Positions 14,691 to 64,000 of a stretch of DNA of 64,000 bases are shown piece by piece. Every line of letters starts with the position of its first letter. Positions within the stretch are counted from its first letter, which is position 1. Source of the DNA: Nanobdellota archaeon (GTDB lineage Archaea; Nanobdellota; Nanobdellia; Pacearchaeales; GW2011-AR1); the NCBI GenBank assembly GCA_038045705.1, contig JBBSXO010000005.1, positions 21,136 through 85,135 on the forward strand, given 5' to 3'. The notes beneath the pieces were generated by a model. That model had not been told where the DNA came from. It saw only the letters and a list, made by a program, of their open reading frames with translations, and did no database searches. The translations under genes and the position numbers were made by a program.

Positions 14691-14697
14691 AATTCTA

Positions 14698-18376: not shown

Positions 18377-18586
18377 ATGGATAAAAATAAAGCACTTGTT
18401 GTATTTCAAGATAAGAAAATAAGAAGAACATGGTTTAATGATAAATGGTGGTTTGTTATCGAGGATATTGTTGCCATACTAACAGATTCTCAAGACCCCA
18501 AACAGTATATTAATAAAATGAGACAAAGAGATAAACCGCTTGAACAAGGGTGGGTACAGATTGTACATACCCATCCAGTCACTTGA
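18377..18586 (+). pseudogene. Truncated Bro-N domain gene
   Basis: FQDKKIRRTW...WWFVIEDIVAILTDSQDPKQY; stops after 69 aa in the middle of the domain. Confidence 0.65.
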
Positions 18587-18733
18587 AAATCTACCTTTAC
18601 ATTTTGAAGTTTCATAATATCAGTTAAGCCTTATACTCAGTCCTGAAAAGAGGTATTTAAGTTTATCTTAATATAACCCCTTTAAAGTTACAACATTAGA
18701 AACATTTAAATACCCTCAGTTTTTTGCTCCTTT

Positions 18734-19495: not shown

Positions 19496-19496
19496 G

Positions 19497-19814
19497 ATGA
19501 GTTATATATCTCAATCGATAAAAGTAGGAAATTATACGGGTGTTGCTAAAAAGTGTTTTGAAGATTTAGATAATTATGCTAACCTTATGTCACAGAAAAG
19601 ACCTGGAACTACTATTTTATTTAGAACAGAAAATGCAATATTCATGCATCTTTTAGATTGTAGTGTCTTTTTTGAATATAAACCTAGTGAAAATAAAGGA
19701 AAAATAGATTTAACATTAAAAGTAGCTGGAAAAAATAGAAATGATACTTTTGAGGGGTTAGAAGATAAAGTTTTAAAATTTAATCCAAGTAAAACAGAAA
19801 CAAGAAACTTTTAA
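19497..19814 (+). CDS. Hypothetical protein
   Basis: ORF with ATG immediately after the TrmB stop. Confidence 0.55.
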   Translation: MSYISQSIKVGNYTGVAKKCFEDLDNYANLMSQKRPGTTILFRTENAIFMHLLDCSVFFEYKPSENKGKIDLTLKVAGKNRNDTFEGLEDKVLKFNPSKTETRNF

Positions 19815-46712: not shown

Positions 46713-46970
46713 TGTTTCTTAAGCTATTTAAATCTTTCTGTCACTATTTAGTAATATCCTATTGGAAATGACTGCTTCAAATTCTCTTAAAAAAACCTGC
46801 TGATGGAAAGTCAATTTAGAGATGATAAATTCAAGAAGTGACTCTTTTTGCGCTCTCCGTATAATGCCTCCCACCGCTTTCCGCTATTTTCTCTATAATC
46901 TAACAATTTCCTTATCCTGTTATTTCTATATAGTGGTACTAATACAAATATTTAAAAAGCAAGATGTTGC

Positions 46971-48380: not shown

Positions 48381-48517
48381 TATCTGAGGATATCTGCAAA
48401 AAAATTGGTTATGAATGCATGCTTCTTGAATTTATAAGATGTACAAATTGGATAGATATTTAGAAATTAAGAGAAAAAGCGAATTAATGTTTTTTGGAAT
48501 AAAATATAAGTTAAATT

Positions 48518-48814
48518 TTACTCTTCAACTTTATGCTCTTCTAGGAATGGTGTATCATGTACGCCGTTGTCCATTGTTTCAGGATTTTCGTTTGACAGAT
48601 TCTTAATCATTTCTTCATACATCTCCCCGGTTTCATTAATCCACGTTTTATTTCCTTCGAGACTTTCTTTTTTATCATTGAGCATCTCTAATCTATGTTT
48701 GTTCCAAGCCTTTAATGCGCCTTCTTTAGTTTTATGAACACTTTCAATAGAGTAATGTTCTGGACCATAATCTCCTATAATGAAAACTTTCTTTTCATCT
48801 TTCTCCCAAAACAC
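48518..48814 (-). CDS. Hypothetical protein
   Basis: 98-aa ORF, no recognised motif. Confidence 0.55.
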   Translation of the reverse strand: MFWEKDEKKVFIIGDYGPEHYSIESVHKTKEGALKAWNKHRLEMLNDKKESLEGNKTWINETGEMYEEMIKNLSNENPETMDNGVHDTPFLEEHKVEE

Positions 48815-48830
48815 AATATTTATATAGTGT

Positions 48831-48846
48831 TATCATTATAATGATA
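48831..48846. promoter_or_regulatory. Perfect 16-bp palindrome 2 bp upstream of the HTH gene start, putative operator
   Basis: TATCATTATAATGATA is self-complementary. Confidence 0.6.
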
Positions 48847-48848
48847 GT

Positions 48849-49490
48849 ATGGATATTGAGACTTTAAACCCTTATGTCATTAGAATTTTGATTTCTGCTA
48901 GAGATCAGGATAGCATGAGCTCTATTGCAAAGAGAATAGGCTTATCTTATGGTTGGACCCATAAGTGGATTAGTGTATTAATCAAAGAGGGAGTATTCAA
49001 AGAAAAATGGAATGGAATAATATTGCAGGAGGATAATCAAAGTTATAAAAAAATAATGCAGTTCATCAAGAATACTATAAATCCAATTAATTTATACTAT
49101 TCAACATTACCTTTAATGGGAATATCTTATTCATTGACGCAAACTGATGCAGTTTATGTATGGACTAATGGAGGATATAATATTGCAAGATACAAAGAGT
49201 TTTATCCAATATTTATAAAAATTGAAAAGAAAGATTATCAAACATTTTTGTATTACTGTAATAAATTGGGATTAAATATTAAGGCTAAGGACGGGACTTT
49301 TTATGACCCTAAATTAGTTAAAAAATTAATCTCTGTGAAAAATGGAAAGTATGATGTGGACTCTTTAGAAGAAACCATCGATTTTATGAAGAATAATATT
49401 TATAATTTTGAACCTGCTTTAGAGATGATCGATGAAATGTATCATAAAAAGTTAGGATATGAATATAAAGAAGTAAGTTCATTATCATGA
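48849..49490 (+). CDS. N-terminal HTH protein, putative AbiEi-like antitoxin
   Basis: SMSSIAKRIGLSYGWTHKWISVLIKEG; overlaps the downstream nucleotidyltransferase gene. Confidence 0.6.
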   Translation: MDIETLNPYVIRILISARDQDSMSSIAKRIGLSYGWTHKWISVLIKEGVFKEKWNGIILQEDNQSYKKIMQFIKNTINPINLYYSTLPLMGISYSLTQTDAVYVWTNGGYNIARYKEFYPIFIKIEKKDYQTFLYYCNKLGLNIKAKDGTFYDPKLVKKLISVKNGKYDVDSLEETIDFMKNNIYNFEPALEMIDEMYHKKLGYEYKEVSSLS

Positions 49491-50158
49491 AGGAATTAAT
49501 AATTAAGGAAAACAATATTTTTGATATTTTGCAGAGATTTATCGATGCAAAATTAGATTTTGTAATTGTTGGGGGATATGCTGTTTCATCTTATAAGCAC
49601 CGATTCTCTGTTGATGCAGATATAGTTATTCAATCCAAAGACTTAGAAAATTTTGAGTTAATACTAAAAAAGGAAAAGTTCAAGAAGGGTTTTGAAAAAG
49701 ACCTAGATAATCCTTACTCTTCAAGATTTATGAGATATGAAAAAGATTCTGCAAGCATTGATTTGCTTATTGATGGTATCGCCTCAAGAACAACAAACGC
49801 TTCCTTTGGTTATAACCTTCTGCTTCAAAATTCATCAAAAAGAAAAGTAATAGGCATAGAAAGAGAAATTACAGTTATGGTTCCAAGTAAAGAATTATTA
49901 ATCATTATGAAGATCCATTCTGGAAGGTTAACTGATTTTAGAGATATTGCAGCTATAGCAAAAGAAACTAATCTTGAAATAATAAAGAAGTTAATGTTTA
50001 TTGGAGACTTAAAAGTATTACATGAGAATTTAGAGAAACTTAATCATGCAGTTCATGACAAAAACTTTATCGATTCATTTAAAGGAGTCTTCATAGAGAA
50101 AAAGTTTGATGTTGATTTAAAACAAGTAGAAAAAATAAGTCATTTAAAGGAAGGTTGA
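49487..50158 (+). CDS. Nucleotidyltransferase (AbiEii/DUF6036-like)
   Basis: VIVGGYAV...RFSVDADIVI...LIIMKIHSGRLTDFRDI. Confidence 0.8.
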   Translation: MKELIIKENNIFDILQRFIDAKLDFVIVGGYAVSSYKHRFSVDADIVIQSKDLENFELILKKEKFKKGFEKDLDNPYSSRFMRYEKDSASIDLLIDGIASRTTNASFGYNLLLQNSSKRKVIGIEREITVMVPSKELLIIMKIHSGRLTDFRDIAAIAKETNLEIIKKLMFIGDLKVLHENLEKLNHAVHDKNFIDSFKGVFIEKKFDVDLKQVEKISHLKEG

Positions 50159-50332
50159 TTTAACCAATCAATCAATCTTATCTTGACAATACCTTTAAAC
50201 TCTAGCAATCTTTGAGGTGTTATATATTATTTGGTGATCGAGGCATTTACGGACCAAAAAAGCTTATAATTTGACTAAACTACAACGATATTGATGATAA
50301 GAGGAGTTGCACGCACCTAACTTATAGATTAA

Positions 50333-50461
50333 TGCGGGAGGGAGGATTCGAACCTCCGAAGGCACTAAGCCACGAGATGGCTTACATCTCGCTTAGCTAC
50401 TCGCTCTAATGAGAGAGTGACGTCTTAAGTCTCGCGCATTTAACCGCTTTGCTACCCCCGC
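50333..50461 (-). tRNA. tRNA-Leu(TAA) with a 45-nt canonical-position intron (50379-50423)
   Basis: GCGGGGG/CTCCCGC acceptor, CGAGA/TCTCG anticodon stem, long variable arm, GGTTCGAATCC; bulge-helix-bulge CTTA-AGA / TAAG-CCA. Confidence 0.93.
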
Positions 50462-50617
50462 AATCGGCATATCTGTCCACTGCGCGGATTTCCCCGAGCA
50501 GTTCAGCTGATAGTATAAGAAGAGCAGAAGCGTTGCTGATGCTCATCTGTGACTGTCTGCTAACAGGCAAGACACACCGCAGGGGCAACACATGGAGGCT
50601 ATTTAACACTATCGAAC

Positions 50618-51820
50618 ATGCATGAGGTAAACAACACTGAGGACGAGAGAATACGACCAGTTGATGTAGTTGCGTCACTAGAGCGCGCGACCACTCGGTT
50701 TATGGCCAGGTCAGACATCAGTCAGGCCAACAAGGATCATGTCGCCAAGTTCTTGCGAGAAGCAGCACTTGGCAAGACCGTCGTGGGGCGCGCGAGAAAA
50801 CAGATCGGCCCGGAGCGACGCCATTTATACCTGATGCAACTGACTATTCTGATCGATTTCGTGGGAAAGAACCTCGACGAGGTTGTGATGTCCGATATGG
50901 AGAGGTTCGTTGAGGCTCTGGACGGCGACAAGATTCGTTCGCGCCGGCCACAGCGAAAGGGGCAGAAGCTGGTCGTGGAACCTAGGCCCTTGAGCAGGCG
51001 GTACTGCGCCGACATCAAGATCACCGTCCGAAAGTTTTACATGTGGCTCTGGGGTGGGAATCGGCGAGTGCCGGAACTCGTGGACTGGTTTGACACTTCC
51101 TTTGAACTAAAGGATGTGCCCGCGCTCACCGAGGCAGATGTTGGGCGCATGCTGGACCACTGCAGGACTGTGCAGCAGCGCGCGATCATTCAGGTCTTGT
51201 TCGACGGAGGACTGCGTCTGGGGGAGCTACTAAACGTTCGCCTACGGCATGTCTGGAGAAGAACGGTCGTGCCGAATGATCCAATGACGGTTTGTTATTT
51301 CGTGCGTGTGCCTTTCAGCAAGACTCTCCGTCGAACCGTCGTGCTCCCCATGCGCGACAGCACTCGTGCTCTCGGTCTGTGGCTCGAGAAACACCCCGGT
51401 CGACCAGTTGTGCTCCCCGACGGTACTCTCGACGCGGACGACTTGAGCCTGCAACTTTTCCCCATGACCGGAGAGGCGATCAGGCAGATGCTACGCAGAG
51501 TGGGTAAGTGTGCTCTCGGTCGCCGGGTGTATCCACATCTCATGCGCCACACCTCAGCCACATTCTGGAGCAACAAGGTTTCCTACTTCAAAATGTGCAA
51601 GCGCTTCGGTTGGACCATGGTCAGCAAGATGCCCCAGCGCTACATCGATCGAACTGGCGTTGATGAGGAGGAGATCGCCAACATCTATTTTGCCAAACAG
51701 AAGGGCGAGTCGCAACGAGGGGCAGACGAGCTTCTGATTGAAACGCCCGAGGTTCAGGCTGAGGTCAAGCCCGTCAAGGGATCGTTGCCGCGTCCGCAGT
51801 CCATGCGTTCCGCAAGCTAA
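50618..51820 (+). CDS. Tyrosine recombinase/integrase
   Basis: LFDGGLRLGELL (R), SKT (K), PHLMRH (HxxR), FGW and RY catalytic residues. Confidence 0.92.
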   Translation: MHEVNNTEDERIRPVDVVASLERATTRFMARSDISQANKDHVAKFLREAALGKTVVGRARKQIGPERRHLYLMQLTILIDFVGKNLDEVVMSDMERFVEALDGDKIRSRRPQRKGQKLVVEPRPLSRRYCADIKITVRKFYMWLWGGNRRVPELVDWFDTSFELKDVPALTEADVGRMLDHCRTVQQRAIIQVLFDGGLRLGELLNVRLRHVWRRTVVPNDPMTVCYFVRVPFSKTLRRTVVLPMRDSTRALGLWLEKHPGRPVVLPDGTLDADDLSLQLFPMTGEAIRQMLRRVGKCALGRRVYPHLMRHTSATFWSNKVSYFKMCKRFGWTMVSKMPQRYIDRTGVDEEEIANIYFAKQKGESQRGADELLIETPEVQAEVKPVKGSLPRPQSMRSAS

Positions 51821-52112
51821 GAACTGTGGCTAATGGTGCTGGCGGCCACTACCCAGTTGACTGAGAAATGCGGATCTGGTCAGTCTGCGTCGGCCTTTCT
51901 GGCGCAGCGGTGCTGGCGCATAGAGTGCCGCGTCGCGGCGCATGCGTGAGGTGACGTCGGTGCACGGAGGTTGTGACCGGCCAGCTGTTGCGTTGCACGG
52001 CCGATGACCTGAGTCGTGCGTTCTCGTTGCGCGTTCCGTGACGGGCGGTCGCGGCGCGCGCCAGCATTGGGATGTTCAAAGCCCGCCGGAAGAAGCGGGA
52101 AGGTGAGAGTTT

Positions 52113-52469
52113 TTAGGCAGTCTTTCGCGACAATCCAACAATCGACAGACACCCAACCAATCCAGCCAGAATCAACTCGCCGCGCCAGGTCATTAGGAGC
52201 CAGTTGCCAACGCAGCCACAGACGGCCGGCCGCACGACGATGGCGTGCCCTGTCCCTAAGAACGCAATCACGACCCCGACGAATAGCCCAAGGCGTCGAT
52301 ACCGACTCCAGCAAAGCAGCACGGCAGTTGCAGTTTCGAGAAGCGTGACTCCCCAATAAAGAGACTGTGAATACGAAACACCCACTGGGACACCGCCAAC
52401 AACTTTGGCGACGGCGACCGTGCCAAGCAATACCGCCAACACCAAAGGCACAACTATCCCTCTAGCCAT
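52113..52469 (-). CDS. MauE/DoxX-like membrane protein
   Basis: Several TMs with AVAK, LLE and CGCVG motifs; start MARGIVV at 52469 chosen to avoid overlap. Confidence 0.6.
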   Translation of the reverse strand: MARGIVVPLVLAVLLGTVAVAKVVGGVPVGVSYSQSLYWGVTLLETATAVLLCWSRYRRLGLFVGVVIAFLGTGHAIVVRPAVCGCVGNWLLMTWRGELILAGLVGCLSIVGLSRKTA

Positions 52470-52516
52470 AGCCTTACCATGGTTTGTTGTCCGACCGAGT
52501 CCACCGTTTGCTCCCG

Positions 52517-53119
52517 CTAGTCTATTGGCGGCATCGTTAGGGTGTAGCAGCTGAAATTGCAATCTCGGCAAATTGCCACAAGCTTCAGCTGGCACTCAGC
52601 TGCAGGTGGGCAAGCAGTGCCTACACAGGCAGCAAGGGAACGTGTCACTTTGCACTCACTCCATGTGTTGCACCCAGCTGCAGACGCCACAAGTGGGTCG
52701 CCGCTCTCTGTTGGCCCTACGAAGAACCCCCAGTCGGTACAAGTTGGGCCAGTGGTCGTACCGTCGAAGTTCCTTCTGGTATAGCAGTAGCTATCCGCGT
52801 GAGTAGTCGCATTTCCGCCACGGAACAATGGCATCGACACAGTCATTATGCAAGTAGGAGTCGACTCTATGCACTGGCGAAGTTCGTTCTCCTCTTCGCA
52901 AACACAATAACCGTCTCCAGTAGCATCAACCATGACGAAATCGTACAAGTCTCCGCCGTAGCAAGGCGGCGGGACGGCGCCAATGTCGGGTCCATAACCG
53001 TACTGCGGCTTGCACCCATACCACTCACAATCGGTATCGATCGGACTATCGACCGCCGCGCTTGCTGCGATCGAGAGAAACATTGGCACCAAGAAGACGC
53101 CGACGAACGATGAAGTCAT
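52517..53119 (-). CDS. Secreted Cys-rich protein
   Basis: Signal peptide and 17 Cys in the mature region. Confidence 0.65.
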   Translation of the reverse strand: MTSSFVGVFLVPMFLSIAASAAVDSPIDTDCEWYGCKPQYGYGPDIGAVPPPCYGGDLYDFVMVDATGDGYCVCEEENELRQCIESTPTCIMTVSMPLFRGGNATTHADSYCYTRRNFDGTTTGPTCTDWGFFVGPTESGDPLVASAAGCNTWSECKVTRSLAACVGTACPPAAECQLKLVAICRDCNFSCYTLTMPPID

Positions 53120-53143
53120 GAGAGAGTCCTTATTTCTTGTTGG

Positions 53144-53971
53144 TTACTTACCATCCCATGTAACGCGTCCCTGAATGTTGCTTAGTAGTTGTTTTGCTTC
53201 CTCAGACGTAATAGTGCCTTCACGACAGAACCATACTACAATCAAACCTAGCAGCTCTCGTCCCTTTTCATGCATTACCGCCTCTCCAAGTGAGCTTCCG
53301 GGCATCATATCGCGATTCGCCATATGCACTGTATCACCAATTGTCTGAATCATGTTGTAGCCACTAGCCTCTGGCGGCAACACGCCTGAGCGAAACCGTG
53401 TTCCGCGTGGCAGAGTGACGGTTGCAGTCCCGCTCTTAGCTCGGAGTTCGGCCATTTCCTTTGCGGCGATCTCATGTCGAACGCGCAAAATGTTTAGCAG
53501 CTCACGTTGCGGGCCACGGAGCAAACCCTCCAGCTCGCGCCTCTTGTCAGGGGGTAAGTAAACGTCGCGCGGGTTTAGCATTTCATGCCGGAACAGGCTA
53601 TTCGCTGTAACCGCTACTGCAGACGTGATGATATACCTAGTGAGAGGGTATCTCTGAACACGGATAGCCTGCCACTCCGCGTCCGATTCAGGACTCGGCG
53701 CATGCTCATTCGTACTCTGAGCATTTGGTTCGAAAGACTCTAAGCTGTCATAGTCTACTGTACTATTCGCGGAAGAGAGAACGGCGGTTGCAAGAGCTTC
53801 GGCATCGCCCGTACCTGACGTGGGCACGATTGCGTCTCCCGGAGTGACGACCAACGGCGTTGGCCGCGGTATTCTTGCAAGCCAGACACCAACAGCGATT
53901 CCTGAGAGCGCGACTAGCGCCAAAGCCCAGCGGTGCTTTTTCGAGGTAGCCAAGTTAACCTCTCGATGCAA
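53144..53971 (-). CDS. Hypothetical protein with N-terminal TM anchor
   Basis: 275-aa ORF, co-oriented with the Cys-rich and MauE-like genes. Confidence 0.6.
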   Translation of the reverse strand: MHREVNLATSKKHRWALALVALSGIAVGVWLARIPRPTPLVVTPGDAIVPTSGTGDAEALATAVLSSANSTVDYDSLESFEPNAQSTNEHAPSPESDAEWQAIRVQRYPLTRYIITSAVAVTANSLFRHEMLNPRDVYLPPDKRRELEGLLRGPQRELLNILRVRHEIAAKEMAELRAKSGTATVTLPRGTRFRSGVLPPEASGYNMIQTIGDTVHMANRDMMPGSSLGEAVMHEKGRELLGLIVVWFCREGTITSEEAKQLLSNIQGRVTWDGK

Positions 53972-54755
53972 GCTGGCCGTGAGCCAGCAGAAGAAGTCGA
54001 GTGGAGCAACTGCAAGAGACGGTAACGGGTGTTGCGCTAGAAGTCAATAGAGAAGCAGAATCTTGCAGCTAGCAACCGGGTCTGGATCTCACCCTGGAAC
54101 AAGCGACCGAGCTTGCTGCCACCGGCAGTGGTGGCCGCGAGTGGCCGCGGTGACATGTTGTTAATTTGCTACTTGTACAAGACATCGCCTCTCCGTAACG
54201 GATGGAGGATGCTCATCCCAGTATTCGAGGAGAGGCGGGCCGCAGCTCTGGAAGCCGCGGAACGTAGGAAGCCCCGTCGGGTGATTCACGCAACCTCACC
54301 GGAAGGACACGATCCAGGGCCGCCTCGTACCAGGCCGCCAGTTCCTCGCGCCGCGCTGGGCGCTCGCCAAGTTCGATTCTTCGCATGGCGACACCTGCCC
54401 GCCTCAGCGGCGCGATCCAGGAACAGCGGCTCACCCATGCCTGGCAGACGACCCTGTTCCACGGCAACCACACCCATGCCGAACCGGTGGACAAACCGCC
54501 CCGTCCAAAGGAGCCCAGCAGCAACGTTCGCCAGCAATACCACGAGAAGTGATCGGAGCGTTCTCCCACACCATACGAGCTTCCATCCCGAAAAGCGAAG
54601 TACTGGTAGCTCAAGCCTTGAGCGCCGAGATACGCGACGGTATCGAACGGAGATCTTGAGATACGTGCAACCAATCGCGACGGCTACAGACACAGCTAAT
54701 GGGCAACCTACTGGCACTTCCATACGAGTCCTTCCTTGCGTTCGGTTGCCACTAT

Positions 54756-55094
54756 CTAGAGCGTATAGACCAGTCTTGGTCTGGAGTCCGCAGGATCGCA
54801 GACAGCTTCATACAAGTAGATGACTGGTTGCCGGTTGGCATCGAGTATCTGATACCTACGAAGTTGCGGTGGCAGGTCCTGACGGCGAATACGTCGACCA
54901 TCGTGTTCGAGCGATTTGAGTGCAGTGGCCACAGCAGACAGCGACTCCCCCAGCGCTACGCTGATTTGACATGTGGACTGAGGACCCTCATCGAGTAAAT
55001 ACGCCACCACACGATCCTCCAACGCTCCTACGTCGTGGATAGAAGGGGAGTCCCCGCCATAAAGCCCGCCTATGCTCATGTCTGTTCTCAACAC
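54756..55094 (-). CDS. Small winged-helix protein
   Basis: RVVAYLLDEGPQSTCQISVALGESLSAVATALKSLEHDG. Confidence 0.5.
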   Translation of the reverse strand: MLRTDMSIGGLYGGDSPSIHDVGALEDRVVAYLLDEGPQSTCQISVALGESLSAVATALKSLEHDGRRIRRQDLPPQLRRYQILDANRQPVIYLYEAVCDPADSRPRLVYTL

Positions 55095-55484
55095 CTGAGA
55101 GATTAAGAAGGTGCGCCACTACTACCTTGTAGTGCCTGGATTCTATTTATCCAATTTTCGTTTGAGTCAGTCTTTGGGAGTAAGCTCGACAACCCTCGAA
55201 AACGGGAAGAACGTTATCAATCTAAACGACCCGAGTTTGGCAAGCAACCACAATTCTCGATTGAGCCATGACGACCATCGGTATGGCAGCTACTTGTGAA
55301 CACCGTCAGCGTGGCCAATGGTATTATCATCGAGGTAGGAATCCTCCTGCACCGGCGAACGACTGGGTCGCGCACCCCGGGTCCCTTCTTCGCCAGCTTT
55401 TGCCAAGTGAACTCCATCGTCGAGCTGAACGGCCTGAACGAGAACCGTACTCCGTAGGCCACATGGGAACGGCATTGGCGACTT

Positions 55485-56150
55485 TCACTTTGGCGGTGGC
55501 ACAGTTTGACCAAAGGTAAGTGAATCGATCCCAAGGAGTTTGCGGGAGAACTCCTCCTGAATCGCTGCATGAGTCCTTCTCCTCGTTCTCTCAAACAATG
55601 CGAGAAGTGTTGGTGCAACCGTGTGTGTTGGCACCACCTGAGTGGACTCCATGGTCTCAAGCGGTCCTCGCCATGACTGTCGGACGGCAAGTAGCTCCAA
55701 GTCTTCGGCCACAACAATCCCAAGGCCAAGAAGATTGCTACGTACATTAGTGAATGCGTCCCAAACGGCGGCTTCGATCCTTAGCCAGTCGTTGGCGTTG
55801 CGATCATCTTCTCCGCGGACCCTGGATAGGAGTTGATCACGGGTGCTACTCGTCACTCCGGAATACGTGTCAGCGTTTTCCATGGCCTTCGCAAGCCAAC
55901 TGTCGATTTCGAATCTCCTTTTGATCGTCCCTTGAAGCGTAATCGTCTCCGCCCTCGCAGCTTCCTGTTCGAGGTTCGCGCTGATGCATGCTGCGGCCGT
56001 AAACCCGACCATGGCGACCAAGGTAGCCCATCCCTTTCCATTCAGCTTGTACCTGGTTTTACCATCGTAGCGCCGTATTTGCGTCTTGCAAGTTAGCCAC
56101 TCGGCTGCGAGGCCACAGAGAGCTACGGCGATTACGAAAACCACAGTCAC
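55485..56150 (-). CDS. Hypothetical protein with two N-terminal TMs
   Basis: Two hydrophobic segments followed by a helical domain. Confidence 0.55.
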   Translation of the reverse strand: MTVVFVIAVALCGLAAEWLTCKTQIRRYDGKTRYKLNGKGWATLVAMVGFTAAACISANLEQEAARAETITLQGTIKRRFEIDSWLAKAMENADTYSGVTSSTRDQLLSRVRGEDDRNANDWLRIEAAVWDAFTNVRSNLLGLGIVVAEDLELLAVRQSWRGPLETMESTQVVPTHTVAPTLLALFERTRRRTHAAIQEEFSRKLLGIDSLTFGQTVPPPK

Positions 56151-56355
56151 ATTTACTGCTCCGAGTTAGCTGTACTAGTTCACTGCAGGCATGTAGAGTC
56201 TTGAGGTCCAACACAAGTAAATGCTCACTGCCCTATGTCTGGAGGTAAACCGCCACACGACGATGGCGCTCCTGGTATCGGTTCAGGGGACGCTGGGGAA
56301 CGCTTTAGCTGACTCCCAAGCGCGCAATATTCTAACCAACGAAGGTTGAAGCCGG

Positions 56356-57345
56356 CTAGCGTATGATCGTGGCTTGGCTTGATGCGATACCCATCGCAAA
56401 CAATGGTGAGAACGTAATGCACTGTGTTACGGCTGACAGTCCCGAAGCTGGCCCTGAATACGTGACTGGAAGTCCGGCCACACCTCCTGTGAAGAATAGG
56501 AGCGGATCGTTGACGTCGAAGTTCACCAAGATACCTGGAAGGCTTGGGGAGTTTGGGACAGCGGGACGAAAGCTCACCGCGACGAAGTGTAACGCTTGGG
56601 CGTCATTAGAATTGATCATAATTGTGGCAACTCCAATCCCGGGAACGGTGGCTAGGCAATACGCAGATCCGATGGCTCCGTTTACGTAGAGACGTGCCTC
56701 GGGCTTGTTCTCCTGGTAACTTGGCAATAGTCCACCGGTTACCCTGACAGTGTACTCCTCGATGTCACCGAAGAAAGAACCGGACGGTGGTGGAGGCCCA
56801 GGGTGACCGAACCCAACCCTTATGCGAGTCTCCGCAACGGCATTGCTAGGAACTCGAATACTTGCGCTGAAGAACACGACCTGGTTGACGCTCACGAGGT
56901 TCAAGTCGTAGCGCTCACCAGCGTCGTCGAAGTACCGATTGCCATTCCAATCGACGTACGCCCGTGCTTGTCCGATGAGCCCATTGTTGAAGACACCAAG
57001 GGTTAGGAGCACTGTCTGGCAGGGAACCACTATAGCTGTCTGGTTAAGGAAGCTTGAGAAGCCAGAAAACCCCGGTGGACACAGGGGGCTGGGTATCGTT
57101 GTGTCATTCACGACACTAGCGAAAGACACCAAGTTTACGTACGAGCGAAGAAACCCAAGATGACACACGTCACCTACCGTTGTCGGATAGGCCTCCAGGT
57201 TGGTATTGACGCAGAGGTTGACCGTGGGGCACTGGGTTATGAGCGGCCGGCTGAATGGGATTACCATCAGCAAAAACAACACGCGTGAAGACATCGCCAT
57301 GGGACGTGTGGTATGAGTTGGTAGTGTGGTTCGAGGTGGTCGCAT
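56356..57345 (-). CDS. Secreted GEVED-domain protein
   Basis: AYVDWNGNRYFDDAGE...TRIRV...GDIEEYTV matches the GEVED pattern. Confidence 0.7.
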   Translation of the reverse strand: MRPPRTTLPTHTTRPMAMSSRVLFLLMVIPFSRPLITQCPTVNLCVNTNLEAYPTTVGDVCHLGFLRSYVNLVSFASVVNDTTIPSPLCPPGFSGFSSFLNQTAIVVPCQTVLLTLGVFNNGLIGQARAYVDWNGNRYFDDAGERYDLNLVSVNQVVFFSASIRVPSNAVAETRIRVGFGHPGPPPPSGSFFGDIEEYTVRVTGGLLPSYQENKPEARLYVNGAIGSAYCLATVPGIGVATIMINSNDAQALHFVAVSFRPAVPNSPSLPGILVNFDVNDPLLFFTGGVAGLPVTYSGPASGLSAVTQCITFSPLFAMGIASSQATIIR

Positions 57346-57490
57346 GCGTCAGTGCCGAGTCAGCATTCGCATGAGTTCCGAATTCACAAAGTAGCGGCTG
57401 ATTGAATGTTTCTGACACAAACTGCTGGATCAATACGGATACTGCCTCTGTGGTTTCATGATTGATGGCTTTCTTGACTGAATGCCTATT

Positions 57491-58360
57491 CTATTCTAGA
57501 AACTCAAGCGCTTCCTTCAACAGTTTTGCGACCTTGTCCTTCTCGATCTGGGGGGCGTCCTTTGTAATCGAGAACGGATAGACACGCAGACCATCCTTGC
57601 TCTTCTTGATGTAGAGCTTCTTGCGACCAGGTTGCCGCTTGCCTGCCTCCTGACGGAGGACACGCTTCAACTGCTTAGCGCTGAGAGTCTCCGACTCGAT
57701 ACGCTTCTTCCACTCCGAAGGACTCTCGACGCCAAAGTCGTGCAGCGCCTTGGCGTGCGCCATCGTGACGATCTTGCCGTCGAGGCATTTCTGTAGCGCG
57801 CTCGAGAAGCTCAACAGCTCCAGATAGCGATCAACCTGCTTTTGGGAGAGGCCGAAGAGTTCCTGGAGATCGTTCTTCTTCAGACCCTGCCTTTGCGCCA
57901 ACCAGAGGGCATTGGCTCTATCCACCGGTGCCAGATTCTTGCGCACGACATTCTTCGTGAACGCGACCCGAAGCGCCTGGTTGTCGGCCATCTCGTGCAC
58001 GACAGCCTGAATCGAGGACCAGCCCAGTTCCTGCGCGGCCCTGCAGCGTCTGAAGCCATCGATGATCCGATACGGCTTCGGGCCGAGGAGATCGACGGGT
58101 TGCTCGAGTCCATCGTGCTCCAGGCTGCGCCGCACATCTGCAACGGCCATGGAAACGCGGCACTGAAACGTCGTGTTCGACGAGTCGATGTCTGCAAGGC
58201 TGATGGTCTGGTAGGCACCATCGAGTGCTTTGGGAGGCGTGATGCGTTCCTCCAACTTCGACGCTCCATCGCTTGATGTGTCTACGGCATGCCGGCGCCG
58301 GTCGGCTCTGCGTTTCGGCCCGGCATCAGAGTCTCCTTCGGGTTGCATTCCGCTCTCCAT
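57491..58360 (-). CDS. ParB/Spo0J-like protein
   Basis: SLEHDGLEQPV, YRIIDGFRRCRAA..LGW, NVVRKNL, then HTH. Confidence 0.85.
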   Translation of the reverse strand: MESGMQPEGDSDAGPKRRADRRRHAVDTSSDGASKLEERITPPKALDGAYQTISLADIDSSNTTFQCRVSMAVADVRRSLEHDGLEQPVDLLGPKPYRIIDGFRRCRAAQELGWSSIQAVVHEMADNQALRVAFTKNVVRKNLAPVDRANALWLAQRQGLKKNDLQELFGLSQKQVDRYLELLSFSSALQKCLDGKIVTMAHAKALHDFGVESPSEWKKRIESETLSAKQLKRVLRQEAGKRQPGRKKLYIKKSKDGLRVYPFSITKDAPQIEKDKVAKLLKEALEFLE

Positions 58361-58679
58361 GCGTAGTCTCCACCGGGGATGGCGTGATGTCGGACACCGT
58401 GTCTTCCAGACCCTTACTCTAGTGCTGGTGGCAGCTTAGCGACGGCGCACCCCGAAATCCGTTGCTCTGGCTTCCACTACAACGCGCAGGCAGCCGACTT
58501 ATGTATCCCTGGGGGTAGCGACTGTCAACAACGTTCTTTGCCCGACAGGGCGCATGACAAGACACAAGTGTCTGGGTCCGCGCATGGGACACACGACAGG
58601 CATGGAACTACAGTCTGCTTGGCCGGCCAGTTGATCGTCGACGACCTTCGGCCCGCAGCAGCTCAGCCCCGACGATCTT

Positions 58680-59030
58680 TGGAGGAGATCCACGTCAAGA
58701 CGCTCGACCGCGACGACGAGGTCAAGGCCGCGATCATCCTGTTCTTGAGCATGCTCCATGAGAAGCAGCGGCGGCTTGGTTTGCACCCCGAGTGTCGCAT
58801 CCAGCTCGGTCGCGAGAACGCCGGCGTCCGCAAAGGCAAGGTCGACCACGAGTTGGTCGCCGACGCCCTCGAACGGTGGCACCTCGCATGACGGGGCACC
58901 CCCCGCCGCGATGCGACGTCGAGCCGCTGCGCTAGATCCTGCATCGCACGCTCCCTTGCTGGAACTACACCATCTCACCGGCGATCGCTTCGGCATGATC
59001 GCGCGAAGTAGTTCTTGGTCTGCCCCCTGA
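58680..59030 (+). pseudogene. Internally deleted ISAzo13-like transposase remnant
   Basis: DEVKAAIILFLSMLHEKQRRL and, in another frame, HRTLPCWNYTISP resemble the two ends of ISAzo13-type transposases (from recall). Confidence 0.45.
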
Positions 59031-59133
59031 CAGCTGACAGATGGGAAGACTGTTGGAGCTGACGGCCCCGCGCGGTAGCCTCTGCTCAACCCCTCCGAGA
59101 AGCACCAACAAGAAGCGAGGTCAGAGGGTTATT

Positions 59134-60135
59134 GTGACGTTACTTGGAACGCAACTCGACGATGGCTGGGTGGTGACCCGGGAAGTGGTGAGGAGCATCA
59201 AAGCTACCGGCGGGTGCTTCTCTAAGTCCTACATCGTGACGAGGAACGGGAAGGAAGCGTTCATGAAGGCGTTAGACTATATGCAGGCTCTGCAAAGCGT
59301 AGACCCGGCGACGCTCTTGCATACGCTGACCCAAGAGTTTCTTTTTGAGAAAGGTATTCTACGAGAGTGCGAGGCTCGTCGGATGCGAAGAGTAGTTCGG
59401 CAGATTGGTCACGGGATCCTGAAGCTCACACTTGGTGGCTTACCAATCACGGTGCAGTACTTGATACTTGAGAAGGCTGACGACGATCTGCGGCATACCC
59501 TGGACGGAATGACCGCCTCCGTAAGGGCGCGGGCGTTGCAGCAGGTTGCGATTGGGTTGACGCAGTTGCACAGAATTGGTGTCGCGCATCAGGACATCAA
59601 GCCATCCAATGTACTCCTATTTCGAGGAGACGGTGCAAAGGTTGGTGATCTTGGGTGCGCGTTTCAGAAAGGCATCGCACGTGTTCGCGACCAATACAGA
59701 GTAGCGGGCGATCCGCGATATGCACCTCCAGAATTATTGTATGGGTTAGGGTCCCAGGACTATCGGTTGCGAAGACTGGGCTGTGACGCGTACCATTTGG
59801 GTAGTCTAATATTTTTAATGTGGTCGAAGCTGTCGCTGACTAGCGATATTCAAGGCCGCCTCGAACCAAGATTCAGGTGGCAAAAATGGAACGGTCAATA
59901 CGTGGACGTGCTTCCTGAGTTGCAGTCGGCGTTCGAGGATGCTCTCCGCTCATTCGCGACGTTACTACCACCATACGCTTTGGAGTTGGTAGAGTTTGTG
60001 CGTGAGTTGTGCGACCCGGACCCAATGCGACGTAAACTTACGCAGAGTGGCAGCGACATCCCCTTGGAAGTGTACGTTAGCAAGCTTGACAGAGTGGCAA
60101 AGGTCTGCGAGTGGAGGGAGCGCAAGGGTCCATGA
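59134..60135 (+). CDS. Hanks-type Ser/Thr protein kinase
   Basis: TGGCFSKSY, AFMKALD, HQDIKPSN, DLG and YAPPE motifs; GTG at 59134 with upstream GAGGG preferred over 59041. Confidence 0.9.
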   Translation: MTLLGTQLDDGWVVTREVVRSIKATGGCFSKSYIVTRNGKEAFMKALDYMQALQSVDPATLLHTLTQEFLFEKGILRECEARRMRRVVRQIGHGILKLTLGGLPITVQYLILEKADDDLRHTLDGMTASVRARALQQVAIGLTQLHRIGVAHQDIKPSNVLLFRGDGAKVGDLGCAFQKGIARVRDQYRVAGDPRYAPPELLYGLGSQDYRLRRLGCDAYHLGSLIFLMWSKLSLTSDIQGRLEPRFRWQKWNGQYVDVLPELQSAFEDALRSFATLLPPYALELVEFVRELCDPDPMRRKLTQSGSDIPLEVYVSKLDRVAKVCEWRERKGP

Positions 60136-61625
60136 CTGTCTATGCAAAGGATGACGATAGGCGCTTGATTCCGCGATGGCACTGGTTGCAAAGCGAGCCT
60201 GCAAGGCTTGAGCAGCATTTCGGAGGAGACCAGGGTGCAGGTGAACCTGATCCTGCCTTAGCAGCTCTGCTTGAGGAATCACTTGTGGACTGGGTTGCGC
60301 AGAAGGGCGATGTGGTGGCTGGCGAGATATGCTCGGCGGCAATCTTGAGCGGCCGGTTGGAGCTGGCTCGCGATGCAGCAATCGCGCTCAAGGCGGGGAG
60401 CCCGATAGAGAGTGGCATCTATCATGTGGCTGCCGAGGTGCTCGGACAAGCCACAAAGGGTGAGTCCCTAGGAGCAGAAGGCATCAGGGTTGTTATCGGG
60501 CGCCTGCGAGCGCTGCTACGTGATGGGGCTCGGGATCCGATACGGTGGACAGACTTGTCTCGAGCCTTTGCGATCATAGGTAAGCTGAAGTCTGCCAAGC
60601 GGGCGATGTTAGTTGCTACTGACCTGGCGAGTGAGAGCCGCGCCATTGTACGAGCGGCTTCTAGGCTTCTGATCCACGTGGACGAGGCCGACAGAGCGCA
60701 TGATGTACTGATGCGGTCACGACGTATTGTGGTTGACCCATGGGTCATGGCGGCCGAGATTGCTGTGACAAATCTGATGGGCCGGCCATCCGAGTACGCA
60801 AAGAACGCAAGGAAGGTAATCAAGTCCGGGAGGTATGGCGATAGAGATCTCGCCGAACTCCGCGTTGCCCTGGGATCGCAGGAAATATGGTTTGGGAATG
60901 CAAAGCTGGGCAAGCGACTATTGCGCGACGCACTGGTTGCGCCTACCGAAAACGCGATCGCACAGGTTGCATGGTTCATGAGGCGCGAGTATCTGGCCCT
61001 TGGTGTATTTGATGGAGACTCCCTTGGAAGCGCGGAAGCGGACGCCTGGGCGAAGCGGCAGCGAAAAGAGTGGGCGGATTGTCTGCTTGCCTGTGACCGG
61101 TGGTGGAGCATTGAGCCATTCTCGAGCAGGCCATCTGAGTTGGCATCTTACATAGCTTCAACTGTTAGTGGAGATCCCGATCGGTGCGTCGAATACGCGC
61201 GTAGAGGGCTCATCGCCAATCCTGAGAGTGTCGTGTTATGGAATAACTTGGCCGTCGGCTACGCTGAGCGTGGGCTTGTCCGACAAGCAGTGGAGTGTTG
61301 GCGGCGAGCGAGCGCGTTGGACCGAGAAGATGCCTTCCGGGTCACGCTGCAGGCCACGAGAGGCTTGATCGCCTTCCGTGAAGGGCGGTATGCAGAGGGG
61401 CGCAAATTGTATGAGGACGCTGTGGCTTTGGCGAGAAAGGAGGGGAAACTGGAGGTGATGGCAACTTTGCACCTCTTGCGAGAGGAACAGCGGTGTGGGG
61501 GTGCGCCTACGAGTTTGCTTGCTGTCGCGAGGGAGGCGACCAAATCTCCTGATGTTGTTGTAGCAACGATGGCCACCCGTCTGTTGAGTGCGGAAGAGCT
61601 AACGAGGAGTCCTGGGGGTGAGTGA
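60132..61625 (+). CDS. TPR-containing helical protein coupled to the kinase
   Basis: ATGA overlap with the kinase stop; C-terminal TPRs (LWNNLAVGYAERG, ATRGLIAFREGRYAEGRKLYEDA). Confidence 0.8.
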   Translation: MTVYAKDDDRRLIPRWHWLQSEPARLEQHFGGDQGAGEPDPALAALLEESLVDWVAQKGDVVAGEICSAAILSGRLELARDAAIALKAGSPIESGIYHVAAEVLGQATKGESLGAEGIRVVIGRLRALLRDGARDPIRWTDLSRAFAIIGKLKSAKRAMLVATDLASESRAIVRAASRLLIHVDEADRAHDVLMRSRRIVVDPWVMAAEIAVTNLMGRPSEYAKNARKVIKSGRYGDRDLAELRVALGSQEIWFGNAKLGKRLLRDALVAPTENAIAQVAWFMRREYLALGVFDGDSLGSAEADAWAKRQRKEWADCLLACDRWWSIEPFSSRPSELASYIASTVSGDPDRCVEYARRGLIANPESVVLWNNLAVGYAERGLVRQAVECWRRASALDREDAFRVTLQATRGLIAFREGRYAEGRKLYEDAVALARKEGKLEVMATLHLLREEQRCGGAPTSLLAVAREATKSPDVVVATMATRLLSAEELTRSPGGE

Positions 61626-62073
61626 GGCTGCGAGATTCGTGGCGCCGTAGTTATCGTGCGCCGCGTTCCTTGAGACGGGGGCGCGCCATTCCCCGTGAGC
61701 CTCGGGGAACACCTCAAGTCCGGCCAGTCGGGAACACCTGAAAACCGGCCAGTGGTGAGAGTGGTCGCGGACGTTGACGTCGCCTGGCACATGGTGTCGC
61801 TCTGTGACCTTCCGGTGAGGGTGCGTAGCCCGTTTTTTCTGAGCGTTGCGGTCAGCGGTTGGGCTAGGACGAGGGCGTGGTTGCGACCGCGGCCAGCTTG
61901 TAGTTCCAGGGCAGCCAGGCCGGAGTCGATTTGGCGCTGCGGCGCGGCTTGTCCCGATCGATACGCTTCGTTACTCTTCGTCTGAGTCGGTCGCGCTGGC
62001 CCGACTCTGCACCTCTCTCATTCTCATCGGCTCGACCGCCCAGCGCGGTCTTACCCAAAAACCAATAGGACAA

Positions 62074-62994
62074 ATGCAACCAAACAACGTTCGTGAATAC
62101 GAGAACCTCCGTTCAGAACTCGACAAACTTCGCGACTGTATCAACACATATGTTAGCTTTGTCTTGGGGGGATCAGGAGCGGCCTTGGTTGGATTGCTCG
62201 CAGCCATAGGACTGAAAGAGGCCTGGTTTGGAGTATGCCTCGGCGCGCTGGCACTGGCATTGGTGATCACAATTATTCAGAATGTCCTTATGTACAAGTT
62301 CCTCAGCCACAATCGTTATGCTGGATATTGCAAATTGCTATCACAAGAATGGTATGAGGCGAAATCCTTGGACGTTTTCCTTTGGGAGCCCTCCCTAGAG
62401 CAGCTCCGCTATTCTGATTTTGACAACACAGAGGCTGTCGATCGCTGTCGAACAACGGTCATAAAGGGTGTCTCTGGCAGGGCTCTATCGCGCGCGCTTC
62501 TTCGTTTCGGAGGCGACGAACCATCCGCGGACAAGAAGAAGCGACGGCGCGGAGCATGGATAGTATTTTGGGCAATTAGGGGGCATACAACGTCCGCTTC
62601 CTGGGGGTACCCTGTGTACGTAGTTGCGACCTTGTTTATTGTAACGCTACTATTCTGGGCAGTCCATGCCGCGTTCGCCTTCATGTCCTTACAATGGTAT
62701 CTTGGCGTATTACTGCTCTTCTTAAGTGCAGTCCTGGTAGGCATGATGTGGGCGACGCACTTCGGACGGCTTTCTGCCCTTATGGGTCGGAGCAGATCCA
62801 TAGATGCTTACTGTTGGAAGTTCATGTATTTCCGTTTTGCTATCCTTACGTCCCTTGGCGCACGCTCGTACACAATCGTCGCTGGCAAACAACCTTGGCA
62901 GTACCTGCACGCCTATCGCGCAGACAGGCGGTGGATAAGGCAGAGTCTAGCATACAAACTTCGCAACTATCCAGGGCGAGTGCGGCCACGATAG
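62074..62994 (+). CDS. Four-TM membrane protein
   Basis: AGGA-N3-ATG start; EYENLRSEL helix, then two TM hairpins separated by a soluble region. Confidence 0.7.
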   Translation: MQPNNVREYENLRSELDKLRDCINTYVSFVLGGSGAALVGLLAAIGLKEAWFGVCLGALALALVITIIQNVLMYKFLSHNRYAGYCKLLSQEWYEAKSLDVFLWEPSLEQLRYSDFDNTEAVDRCRTTVIKGVSGRALSRALLRFGGDEPSADKKKRRRGAWIVFWAIRGHTTSASWGYPVYVVATLFIVTLLFWAVHAAFAFMSLQWYLGVLLLFLSAVLVGMMWATHFGRLSALMGRSRSIDAYCWKFMYFRFAILTSLGARSYTIVAGKQPWQYLHAYRADRRWIRQSLAYKLRNYPGRVRPR

Positions 62995-63076
62995 CAAATC
63001 GCTCGGGCTGATTTATGAATTGGAAGAGAAGGGCGGACAGACCGTAACGGCGTCGTAAAGTCCTTCACGCCCGACT

Positions 63077-63277
63077 TCAAGGCACCCTTCTCGGTCGTGG
63101 GCGCCTGGGCGCCTCCTCTGGATCGGCGACAGCGATCTCGACGTCGAGGCAGTCCTCGCTGCAGAAGAGTTTGCTCTCGAGGTTGATGAAGTCTCTCGTG
63201 CCAAGGACACCTTTGGCGACCTGGTAGCAGTCGTCACCCACGTGGATCTCCCTGTCGCAGATTGCACAGCTACTCAT
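63077..63277 (-). CDS. Small Cys4 zinc-finger protein (TRASH/YHS-like)
   Basis: CAIC...FCSEDC; start overlaps the ECF sigma stop. Confidence 0.6.
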   Translation of the reverse strand: MSSCAICDREIHVGDDCYQVAKGVLGTRDFINLESKLFCSEDCLDVEIAVADPEEAPRRPRPRRVP

Positions 63278-63765
63278 GCGTCACCTCGTTCACGGAGAAG
63301 ACCACGGAGAGCCTGGCGGGCTCGAGCAACACGGGACTTCATGACTCCGGTTGTCGTCCTCTGGCGCTCAGCCAGCTCCCTGCACGATAGTCCCTCCAGG
63401 TAGTAGCCCGTCGCAGCATCTGCCAGGCACTGGCTGAGTCCTCCGATACGTTCGAGAACGCGTTGATGCGTCTCCCTCGTCGACGCCATCGCCCATGGTT
63501 CCAGACTCGAAAGCGGTTGATGGTCGTCGACGTCGTAGCTTCTCACGCTCGTACTGACGCGAGCGAAGGCAGGTCTGATCGCCACGCGCTTGGCGATCGT
63601 CCAGAGCAACGCCACTGGCTCGCCCACTCGACGGGTGGATCCGCTTACGTAGCGAATGGCCTCGCAGAAGGCCTCCTGGACAACATCGTCGGCGCTGGCC
63701 CGGGGGAAAGAGTACCTGACGCGGTAAAGAATGAGGTCGTAGTGCCTCGCGAAGTCTGCTTCCAT
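63274..63765 (-). CDS. ECF-type RNA polymerase sigma factor
   Basis: ADDVVQEAF (region 2); YYLEGLSCRELAE...GVMKSRVARARQALR (region 4). Confidence 0.85.
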   Translation of the reverse strand: MEADFARHYDLILYRVRYSFPRASADDVVQEAFCEAIRYVSGSTRRVGEPVALLWTIAKRVAIRPAFARVSTSVRSYDVDDHQPLSSLEPWAMASTRETHQRVLERIGGLSQCLADAATGYYLEGLSCRELAERQRTTTGVMKSRVARARQALRGLLRERGDA

Positions 63766-64000
63766 ATCCTTGTGGAAGCAAGACTTATAGAATAGGCTTC
63801 AGGTGAAATGGCGTGGGTCAGATTCAGATTGCCGCCAGCAGGCCTCGGATACCCCAGCACTCAGGTACAGATGGTGCGAGATCCTGCGAGACCACCCGGA
63901 CCTGGCGCTGATCCTCCGGGCGTGGCCCGCGCCTACCGGAGGTCACTCCGCGACGGGATGGTGGCGATGGTGAATTCGGCGGTGACGTGAGGGATGACGA

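Follow-up and report, generated by a model that had tools for sequence, protein, structure and literature searches.

A GC-rich island beside a tRNA-Leu gene

We analysed a window of 64,000 nt from a Nanobdellota archaeon (GTDB lineage Archaea; Nanobdellota; Nanobdellia; Pacearchaeales; GW2011-AR1), which covers positions 21,136 to 85,135 of contig JBBSXO010000005.1 (C5 in the following) of assembly GCA_038045705.1 (G000) and ends with the last base of that contig. The assembly comprises 844 kb in 10 contigs, has a G+C content (GC) of ~32%, is 91.5% complete and 0.45% contaminated, encodes a TATA-binding protein (TBP) in which both TBP repeats match, and falls into the same class as a genome labelled Candidatus Woesearchaeota by the NCBI (G422, the source of locus L045 discussed below). 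At the end of the window, next to a tRNA-Leu(UAA) gene, lies the left part of a GC-rich island of ~27.6 kb that continues on contig C6 of the same assembly (116,995 nt; positions are those of locus L001). The island is a foreign element that is truly integrated at the tRNA gene, with both junctions assembled, and we consider it likely that it is a site-specific integrative island, most likely of bacterial origin, that was recently recombined into this DPANN chromosome. The features that define it are as follows.

50333-50461, minus strand: tRNA-Leu(UAA) gene, the integration target, with a 45-nt archaeal-type intron (Rfam RF00005, 47 bits; 50332-50462 in the ARAGORN intron search)
50451-50461: left copy of an 11-bp direct repeat, GCTACCCCCGC on the plus strand, which represents tRNA positions 1-11
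50462-64000: left 13.5 kb of the GC-rich island by GC profile, continuing as C6 56-14073
50618-51820, plus strand: intact tyrosine integrase, the first open reading frame (ORF) of the island
C6 14074-14084: right copy of the 11-bp repeat, GCTACCCCCGC, at the other GC border

The GC of 1-kb windows lies between 0.25 and 0.365 throughout positions 1-50000 and between 0.52 and 0.62 at positions 51001-64000, with a change from ~31% to ~56% at the 5' end of the tRNA gene. Windows of 100 nt place the switch between ~50250 and ~50400, and since the tRNA spans 50333-50461 on the minus strand, the GC-rich DNA begins at the tRNA 5' end. Thus, the GC profiles and the tRNA coordinates from ARAGORN and Rfam bear out the claim, made in an earlier note on this sequence, that composition switches at the 5' boundary of tRNA-Leu. 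In the whole assembly, 2-kb windows with a GC above 0.42 are found at the end of C5 (seven) and the start of C6 (seven); the sole other one, of 0.43 GC, is on C1. The tRNA gene itself is 87-95% identical to its counterparts in genomes of the same genus, and ARAGORN with intron search found no second tRNA-Leu(UAA) gene in the assembly. With default settings ARAGORN reports a tRNA-Glu at the 3' half of this gene; that call was rejected, as the intron search gives tRNA-Leu(taa).

Island borders and the empty site in related genomes

C5 ends with the 55 nt with which C6 begins, an exact match on the same strand. C6 remains GC-rich for ~14 kb and then falls from ~55% to ~30% GC at ~14085, so that AT-rich archaeal DNA resumes past the 11-bp copy of the tRNA end, a pattern that the earlier note had envisaged. 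Between the two repeats the island measures 27,557 nt (window 50462-64000 plus C6 56-14073). Its bounded nature counters the other scenario of that note, a joining of an archaeal and a bacterial replicon. The right 11-nt piece is a 5' fragment of the tRNA in the same orientation as the full gene and on its upstream side.

Comparison with 16 genomes of the same genus (congeners) showed that the island DNA is absent from all of them (0/16) and that 13 of the 16 have an empty site, in which the tRNA-Leu match abuts the match to the C6 flank (72-80% identity) with an overlap of 11-14 nt. Among the remaining three, G004 has both matches on one contig ~330 nt apart, G008 has them on separate contigs and G015 has no flank match. 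Five empty sites (G001, G005, G010, G013 and G014) were read base by base: a TTTTAAA-box block is followed by GCGGGGGTAGC and the uninterrupted remainder of the tRNA. In G000 the conserved promoter block leads into the 11-mer and then into island DNA, and at the other end island DNA leads into the 11-mer and then into the tRNA; homology to the empty sites of the relatives ends exactly at the 11-mer. Gene order agrees with this picture. In G013 the C6 genes are colinear up to the tRNA and ~3 kb beyond it come tRNA-Thr and then the C5 genes; in G010 the order is C5 genes, 630 nt, tRNA, C6 genes.

The junction region is contained in eight sequencing runs from two studies, in a groundwater setting, and the Logan contigs (k = 31) of four runs were examined. 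Contigs in which the tRNA body and its intron are joined to the island occur in both studies (X1 record 7, 50344-54109; X3 record 10, 50344-51620). Host and island depths in the four runs (34 versus 26.5, 13.7 versus 12, ~5.5 versus ~5 and ~3 versus ~2.5) are parallel over a tenfold range. Contigs are missing for parts of the island in X6 and X7, two runs of low depth, and these holes carry no weight here. The contig-level Logan data contained no circle junction indicative of an excised form. One Logan contig of run X1 (depth 8.85) skips 49 nt of the tRNA, including most of the intron (50378-50428), and has TTTG instead; it probably represents the tRNA of another organism in the sample that lacks this intron.

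Several points weigh against integration as described. A bare match of 11 nt is at chance level (E 0.46), and we take the weight of this 11-mer to lie in its position at both GC borders. Near 20 integrase relatives, bacterial ones included, the 11-bp core has no consistent site with up to one mismatch allowed. No Logan contig in the four runs bridges 50344-50360, a part of the tRNA T-arm common to other tRNAs, so the link between the left flank and the tRNA rests on the original assembly and on synteny. The right junction, on C6, is known from the assembly and the relatives. Finally, island depth is 10-25% below host depth beside the junction and lower still deeper in. The earlier note had named reads across 50300-50700 and depth on the two sides as the evidence to look for: at the level of contigs, the step from the tRNA and intron into the island is covered in two studies but 50344-50360 is not bridged, and island depth tracks host depth.

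Some of these points would fit an assembly chimera, in which a GC-rich contig of another organism was misjoined to DPANN DNA via a common tRNA sequence, as the earlier note had allowed for an att-like sequence. The tRNA T-arm/acceptor region (50332-50373) is indeed common to other tRNAs of the metagenome, and the k = 31 contigs break there (X1 records 6 and 7; X3 records 9 and 10), with loose ends at 50373. However, two independent misjoins would be needed at the same 11-mer, far shorter than any assembly k, and the right junction is internal to a 117-kb contig. The breakpoints match the empty site of the relatives to the base, the flanks are syntenic in those relatives, two studies yielded contigs that run from the intron-bearing tRNA into the island and the depths co-vary over a tenfold range. 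In addition, two other DPANN contigs (see below) carry whole integrase-headed GC-rich islands with both flanks on a single contig. We therefore regard a chimera as very improbable.

Part of the island appears to vary within the population. The segment in question has no repeats at its borders:

54114-63945: inner 9.8-kb segment, bypassed by a Logan joint 54113->63946 at depth 7

Depth falls at ~54100, from 26.5 to 15.2 in run X1 and from 11.3 to 8.6 in run X3, so some members of the population seem to lack the segment or to have other DNA in its place. The break between C5 and C6 at 63946 has the same cause, because the first base of their overlap is the joint of the variable segment.

The integrase and its relatives

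The first gene of the island encodes a tyrosine integrase that is intact, as previously noted: it exceeds the Pfam cut-off for Phage_integrase (34.6 versus 27.1 bits), is recognized by PHROGs, can be aligned with its homologues over 88-97% of its length and retains R200, K235, H307, R310, W332 and Y342, which are invariant in an alignment of 28 sequences and which we take to be the catalytic set of a tyrosine recombinase. The gene is divergent from the tRNA and lies 156 nt from the att core.

The protein collection contained 115 homologues, the best three of which, besides the protein from the window itself, are 72, 70 and 69% identical. The named ones come from Fontivita pretiosa (57%), a Woesearchaeota archaeon (50%), Phycisphaerales (49%) and an 'archaeon' (42%). 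A scan of species-representative genomes gave 56 integrase loci from many bacterial phyla and from DPANN lineages. Relatives were found in 24 of 400 other genomes of the host phylum (the tally includes one match, E 4e-25, in the unpublished genome G273), with a best identity of 42%.

In an IQ-TREE phylogeny of 54 sequences, rooted on Thermoplasmata-type sequences and with 11 rows flagged for composition, the window integrase belongs to a clade of 12 with 100/100 support (L054, which has an internal stop, and the weak partial matches L058 and L059 were left out). The clade comprises 10 bacterial sequences, the integrase of L009, a locus labelled Woesearchaeota, and that of the window. The ten bacteria are six Planctomycetota (five of them Phycisphaerae), one Gemmatimonadota, two Krumholzibacteriia and one unclassified; the nearest to the window integrase within the clade is Fontivita pretiosa (54%). 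At the bacterial loci, the GC of the integrase gene equals that of its flanks.

A metagenome scan with the single integrase sequence found nothing. With an alignment (A2) it recovered 13 loci at 40-55% identity and with GC of 0.37-0.65, which gave no help toward the donor; the only two tRNA calls by ARAGORN at these loci, with introns of ~1-1.5 kb, were rejected as spurious.

Cargo genes

The part of the island in the window carries the following genes in addition to the integrase.

52113-52595: ORF labelled 'MauE-like' by the earlier note; no Pfam match at E <= 0.01
53144-53971: ORF without family match
55485-56150: ORF without family match
56356-57345, minus strand: secreted-type GEVED-domain protein (Pfam PF20009, E 1.2e-8, 36 bits against a cut-off of 24.4)
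57491-58360, minus strand: ParB-like protein (Pfam ParB_N and HTH_ParB; PHROGs)
59041-60135, plus strand: Ser/Thr-kinase-like protein, PDC-M71A (Pfam Pkinase; PADLOC E 1.9e-89, profile positions 9-346 of 352)
60111-61625, plus strand: TPR protein, PDC-M71B (PADLOC E 1.1e-91, profile positions 1-474 of 515)
61846-62994, plus strand: membrane protein without family match
63274-63765, minus strand: divergent sigma-70/ECF-like factor (Sigma70_r2 26.8 against a cut-off of 24; r4_2 19.5 against 25.7; TIGR02937 35.2 against 42.9)

On C6 the cargo continues as follows.

C6 minus-strand, operon-like run: an unassigned 424-aa ORF, the cyclodipeptide synthase and a 496-aa protein with weak symporter similarity
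C6 1713-2453, minus strand: tRNA-dependent cyclodipeptide synthase (TIGR04539, 89 bits)
C6 2398-3672, 4484-5329 and 12486-13442: ORFs without family match
C6 5978-6304: small sigma70_r4 helix-turn-helix protein
C6 6440-7060 and the end of 6387-7397: N6/N4 DNA methylase, divided between two frames
C6 7017-7448: rve_3 transposase fragment
C6 7522-11526: STAND NTPase of 1334 aa with a DUF4062-NB-ARC-TPR architecture
C6 11768-11998: C-terminal integrase fragment
C6 12048-12100: sub-threshold, intron-less tRNA fragment with anticodon loop CUUCGGA (Rfam 22.4 bits, E 0.87)

The earlier note had described this cargo as bacterial in type. Pfam confirms its GEVED and ParB-like proteins, and the MauE-like label finds no Pfam match. 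The ECF sigma factor stands as far as Sigma70_r2, which is above its cut-off, but r4_2 and TIGR02937 are both below theirs. Starts led by a Shine-Dalgarno sequence, also claimed, are seen at 8 of 22 candidate starts under a lenient pattern and not at the rest.

The kinase and TPR genes are adjacent, overlap by 25 nt and match the two PDC-M71 profiles over their full length, and the pair may therefore be listed, by the PADLOC profiles, as a PDC-M71 candidate defence system. In the atlas, look-alike clusters of the TPR protein are listed as 'Bacteria 100%', and look-alikes of ParB also occur in bacterial clusters. The ParB protein has 58 homologues, the best at 67% identity, and is the only cargo gene shared with another GC-rich DPANN island, L041 (tblastn 30% identity, E 2e-30), which holds its only relative among 400 genomes of the host phylum (30-32% identity). 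The STAND protein gave no match in PADLOC. It is also listed in the protein collection on a contig of 15,396 nt, as against 116,995 nt for C6, and another assembly may hold this part of the island on a short contig.

The decayed genes on C6 (6387-7448 and 11768-12100) look like remnants of older insertions in the donor. Rfam found nothing on the island beyond the tRNA fragment at 12048-12100.

An integrase together with ParB is the common backbone of temperate phages, plasmid-like prophages and integrative conjugative elements (ICEs), and PHROGs names precisely these two proteins on the island, with one further ORF matching a PHROG of unknown function. The island might on these grounds be a provirus or an ICE and not a plain genomic island. 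Yet among the ORFs scanned with Pfam, PHROGs and NCBIfam there were no capsid, portal, terminase, relaxase, coupling-protein or VirB4-type (type IV secretion) matches, and scans of IMG/VR with the integrase and ParB alignments returned no relatives of either. We hold a provirus or ICE to be highly unlikely; from its gene content we read the element as an integrative island of the plain kind, which carries defence and accessory genes next to the decayed remains of older mobile elements.

Origin of the element

Codon use and GC have not been ameliorated: UUA makes up 4.2% of the leucine codons in 12 island ORFs, as compared with 41.8% in the host. The foreign composition and the integration at the tRNA uphold in part the earlier proposal of a bacterial-derived element recently integrated into the archaeon; its bacterial derivation is likely but unproven. 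Given that the integration is real, we think the donor was probably a bacterium, possibly a planctomycete-like one, a view that draws on the integrase phylogeny and on cargo content. That integration was recent is our inference.

Against a bacterial source, the evidence is as follows. The closest integrase relatives (72-66% identity) are metagenome proteins without taxon, and so are the closest ParB homologues (67-54%), which carry no taxon name. No ParB relatives at E <= 1e-25 were present in 301 Planctomycetota genomes. The domain label switches 9 times on the integrase tree, at least 6 of these switches being forced by well-supported branches, and the outgroup of the family is archaeal. In PLSDB the integrase matched only three haloarchaeal plasmids, at 25-27% identity. 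Among 27 island ORFs tested, only the integrase recurs beside bacterial integrase loci, apart from the C-terminus of the methylase, which has a weak match in L011 and L013. Named relatives of the STAND protein come from Chloroflexota, other bacteria and a Methanosarcina, at 25-45% identity over partial length. Lastly, of 301 genomes of the host class, 70 have a Sigma70_r2 match (67 above the Pfam cut-off), as against none of four well-known control archaea. Such genes being common in the host class, the sigma-like gene is no bacterial hallmark here; the count agrees with the sigma-70 factor families that, together with bacterial genes, are described for Woesearchaeota/DPANN genomes in an earlier survey (Castelle et al., 2021; PMC8204110).

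These observations could be accommodated if the integration is real and the element came from elsewhere, either from a GC-rich archaeal mobile pool (for example, that of an archaeon with GC-rich DNA that hosts the DPANN cell) or from elements that circulate in two domains, the bacteria-like genes being older acquisitions. The mixture of domains in the integrase family with its archaeal outgroup, the haloarchaeal plasmid matches, the sharing of ParB with DPANN island L041 and not with Planctomycetota, the nearest relatives without taxon and the frequency of sigma-70-type genes in the host class all fit such a source, as do gene clusters common to DPANN and bacterial chromosomes and mobile elements in groundwater, which are reported in a 2026 preprint (10.64898/2026.05.20.726742). 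Nevertheless, all 10 non-DPANN members of the 100/100 integrase clade are bacterial; among them are a cultured planctomycete with a complete genome and contigs as long as 997 kb, and in these genomes the GC of the integrase matches its surroundings. In the host phylum (400 genomes), the closest integrase is just 42% identical, and PDC-M71, DUF4062-NB-ARC, GEVED and rve fragments are typical content of bacterial islands. A non-bacterial source thus appears unlikely, and we retain a bacterial donor as the preferred reading.

As to how DNA of a bacterial donor would have entered the cell, the earlier note saw either of its scenarios as pointing to intimate contact with a bacterial partner. This goes beyond what the data support; contact with a bacterium, uptake of free DNA and a shared vector may each have provided the route.

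Related islands and known systems

Two further DPANN loci with an integrase of this family and GC-rich DNA were found, both in genomes that encode TBP. In L009, whose integrase belongs to the same clade as that of the window, the integrase heads a block of ~7 kb (~9900-17000) with GC of 0.51-0.62 inside DNA of 0.36-0.45 GC; its right edge carries a DUF87/HerA-like ATPase and a resolvase, and no tRNA was found beside it. L041 (genome G190, of the same class as G000) shares the ParB gene of the window; here the integrase follows an intron-bearing tRNA-Glu and heads a 9.7-kb block (9893-19665) of 0.52-0.63 GC inside DNA of 0.31-0.40 GC, with ParB_N, a trypsin-like peptidase and, as read by eye, an integrase-like fragment near the right end. 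Direct repeats around the two islands are limited to 8-10-mers at chance level. In a search for the empty site of L041 among 20 relatives of G190, a set with no genome of the same genus, the left flank was kept in 16 of 20 (17 of 21 genomes with G190 included) and the right flank in none.

A third locus, L045, has an integrase of the family after an intron-bearing tRNA-Gln (9743-9854), an 18-bp repeat of the tRNA end 9.4 kb away (19219-19236) and a third, 14-bp copy 1.6 kb further (20837-20850). The repeats look like a tandem or remnant array, and the locus represents a classic insertion at a tRNA 3' end by the integrase family of the window. DPANN elements of this family adjoin tRNA-Gln (L045 and L047), tRNA-Glu (L041) and tRNA-Asp (L026). 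The tRNA is intron-bearing in four of the five DPANN loci, the tRNA-Asp of L026 having no intron, and the integrase lies after the tRNA 3' end, on the same strand and mostly in DNA of host-like GC. The window element differs in being placed at the tRNA 5' end, in the divergent orientation of its integrase, in its high GC and in having an integrase of the bacterial clade.

The window element resembles the tRNA-gene islands of the Islander database (PMC4383910) in the integrase beside a regenerated tRNA, the displaced tRNA fragment, the foreign composition and the accessory and defence cargo. An intact recombinase, a regenerated tRNA with a displaced fragment and an empty site are all found here, by sequence, so the element would count as such an island. 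It departs from them in several ways: the displaced piece is a 5' fragment of just 11 nt, the rarer configuration (159 islands with a 5' fragment versus 3760 with a 3' fragment in the same source), the targeted gene, in a DPANN genome, codes for an archaeal tRNA and contains an intron, the integrase groups with bacterial sequences and the tRNA is cut off from its upstream archaeal promoter.

Archaeal integrases of the SSV type integrate into a tRNA gene and their own gene is split in the process. That mode was rejected for the island, whose integrase ORF is unbroken, with the core not within the gene but 156 nt upstream of it.

Bacteria-like genes in Woesearchaeota-type genomes, groundwater and the implication of mobile elements link the window to the two reports cited above (PMC8204110 and 10.64898/2026.05.20.726742). 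Those reports deal with gene families and shared clusters, whereas in the window the vehicle itself can be seen where it landed, bounded by att sites and unameliorated in composition, with the corresponding site empty in congeners.

Proposed mechanism and effect on the host tRNA

A circular form of the element would have carried an attP in which the 11-bp core lay between the right and the left end of the island, and the integrase gene would have been at a distance of 156 nt from this core. The tyrosine integrase of the island would have recombined this attP with an attB formed by the first 11 nt of the tRNA-Leu(UAA) gene, thereby duplicating the core at both ends. The outcome would be a 5'-fragment configuration, in which the island sits between the tRNA and its TATA-type promoter. 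We infer that this integrase carried out the integration.

The original promoter of tRNA-Leu(UAA) now faces the right end of the island. In G000, 34 of 41 tRNA genes have a TATA-like hexamer at -45 to -21, and tRNA-Leu(UAA) is among the seven without one. UUA is the commonest leucine codon of the host (41.8% of leucine codons, 38.7 per 1000 codons in 327 ORFs). A further argument against the proposed history is thus that the loss of the promoter of an essential, single-copy tRNA does not sit easily with a stable state unless a promoter is provided by the end of the island. A weak TATA-like sequence, 'ttatacta', is located at about -57 to -50 in island DNA upstream of the tRNA and may be a candidate replacement promoter. 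With an RNase P RNA candidate in the assembly (83.1 bits against a gathering score of 84), a longer tRNA leader could be trimmed.

The other side of the tRNA and the contig ends

The 3' side of the tRNA, outside the island, is variable as well.

46100-50330: AT-rich stretch, variable by comparison with relatives
46971-48380: MutS_V-like gene within this stretch
49487-50158: gene for an AbiEii/DUF6036-like nucleotidyltransferase within this stretch, with a 213-aa partner upstream

The stretch (~46100-50330) is missing at this place in G010 and G013 and located elsewhere in G001, G003 and G016; the two sides of the tRNA-Leu locus are both hot spots. No extra copies of the tRNA-Leu 3' end that would delimit the stretch were found in G000. 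In the closest relative, G001, an exact 22-nt copy of the tRNA-Leu 3' end is present ~92 nt downstream of its tRNA-Leu (G001:C3:30892-30913) and looks like the scar of another integration event.

A multi-copy sequence of ~55 nt identically terminates four contigs of G000 (the start of C1, the start of C7, the end of C6 and the end of C9), a 92-95% copy of it lies at window positions 50228-50268, 64 nt off the tRNA-Leu 3' end, and further copies are present in genomes of the same genus. A related second repeat terminates three more contigs (the start of C2, the end of C3 and the end of C4). The contig-end repeat probably marks the end of a repeat element that was not assembled and that breaks up this assembly. 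The last 70 nt of C1, read by eye, resemble the 3' end of a 16S rRNA gene; the archaeal small-subunit rRNA model has no match anywhere in the assembly, and the rRNA operon is therefore evidently unassembled.

Implications

Integration of islands into tRNA genes and the presence of bacterial genes in DPANN archaea are both well known. In the literature searched, neither this element nor a bacterial island integrated at a tRNA gene of a DPANN archaeon is described. What is new is the combination of an island of donor-type composition still in place in a DPANN chromosome, its exact att borders and the empty site in congeners. To the same combination belong the insertion at a 5' end that uncouples an essential tRNA from its promoter, the similar GC-rich islands in two more DPANN genomes and, apparently, the use of an intron-bearing archaeal tRNA by an integrase from an otherwise bacterial clade.

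For genome binning, the region carries a caution: 27.6 kb of DNA with a GC 25 points higher, ~3.3% of an 844-kb genome, is genuine chromosome and not contamination. The vehicles and the moment of gene transfer from bacteria to DPANN archaea are rarely caught, and here the vehicle is still in place and varies within the population. This makes several matters testable: the action of a bacterial-clade integrase on an archaeal tRNA gene, the survival of an essential tRNA after loss of its promoter, the expression of bacterial defence genes (PDC-M71 and the STAND NTPase) in an archaeon, and the identity of the donor, with its bearing on the question of a possible association between some DPANN archaea and bacteria.

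A broader conjecture, which we put forward tentatively and consider doubtful, is that in groundwater a single clade of tyrosine-integrase elements moves repeatedly, and at present, between Woesearchaeota-type DPANN archaea and bacteria of high GC (Phycisphaerae-like and others), landing in archaeal tRNA genes by means of short identity to them; the islands of the window (27.6 kb), L009 (7 kb) and L041 (9.7 kb) would then be three independent landings. If such repeated movement across domains is true, some DPANN cells would physically touch bacteria, or would routinely take up and express bacterial mobile DNA.

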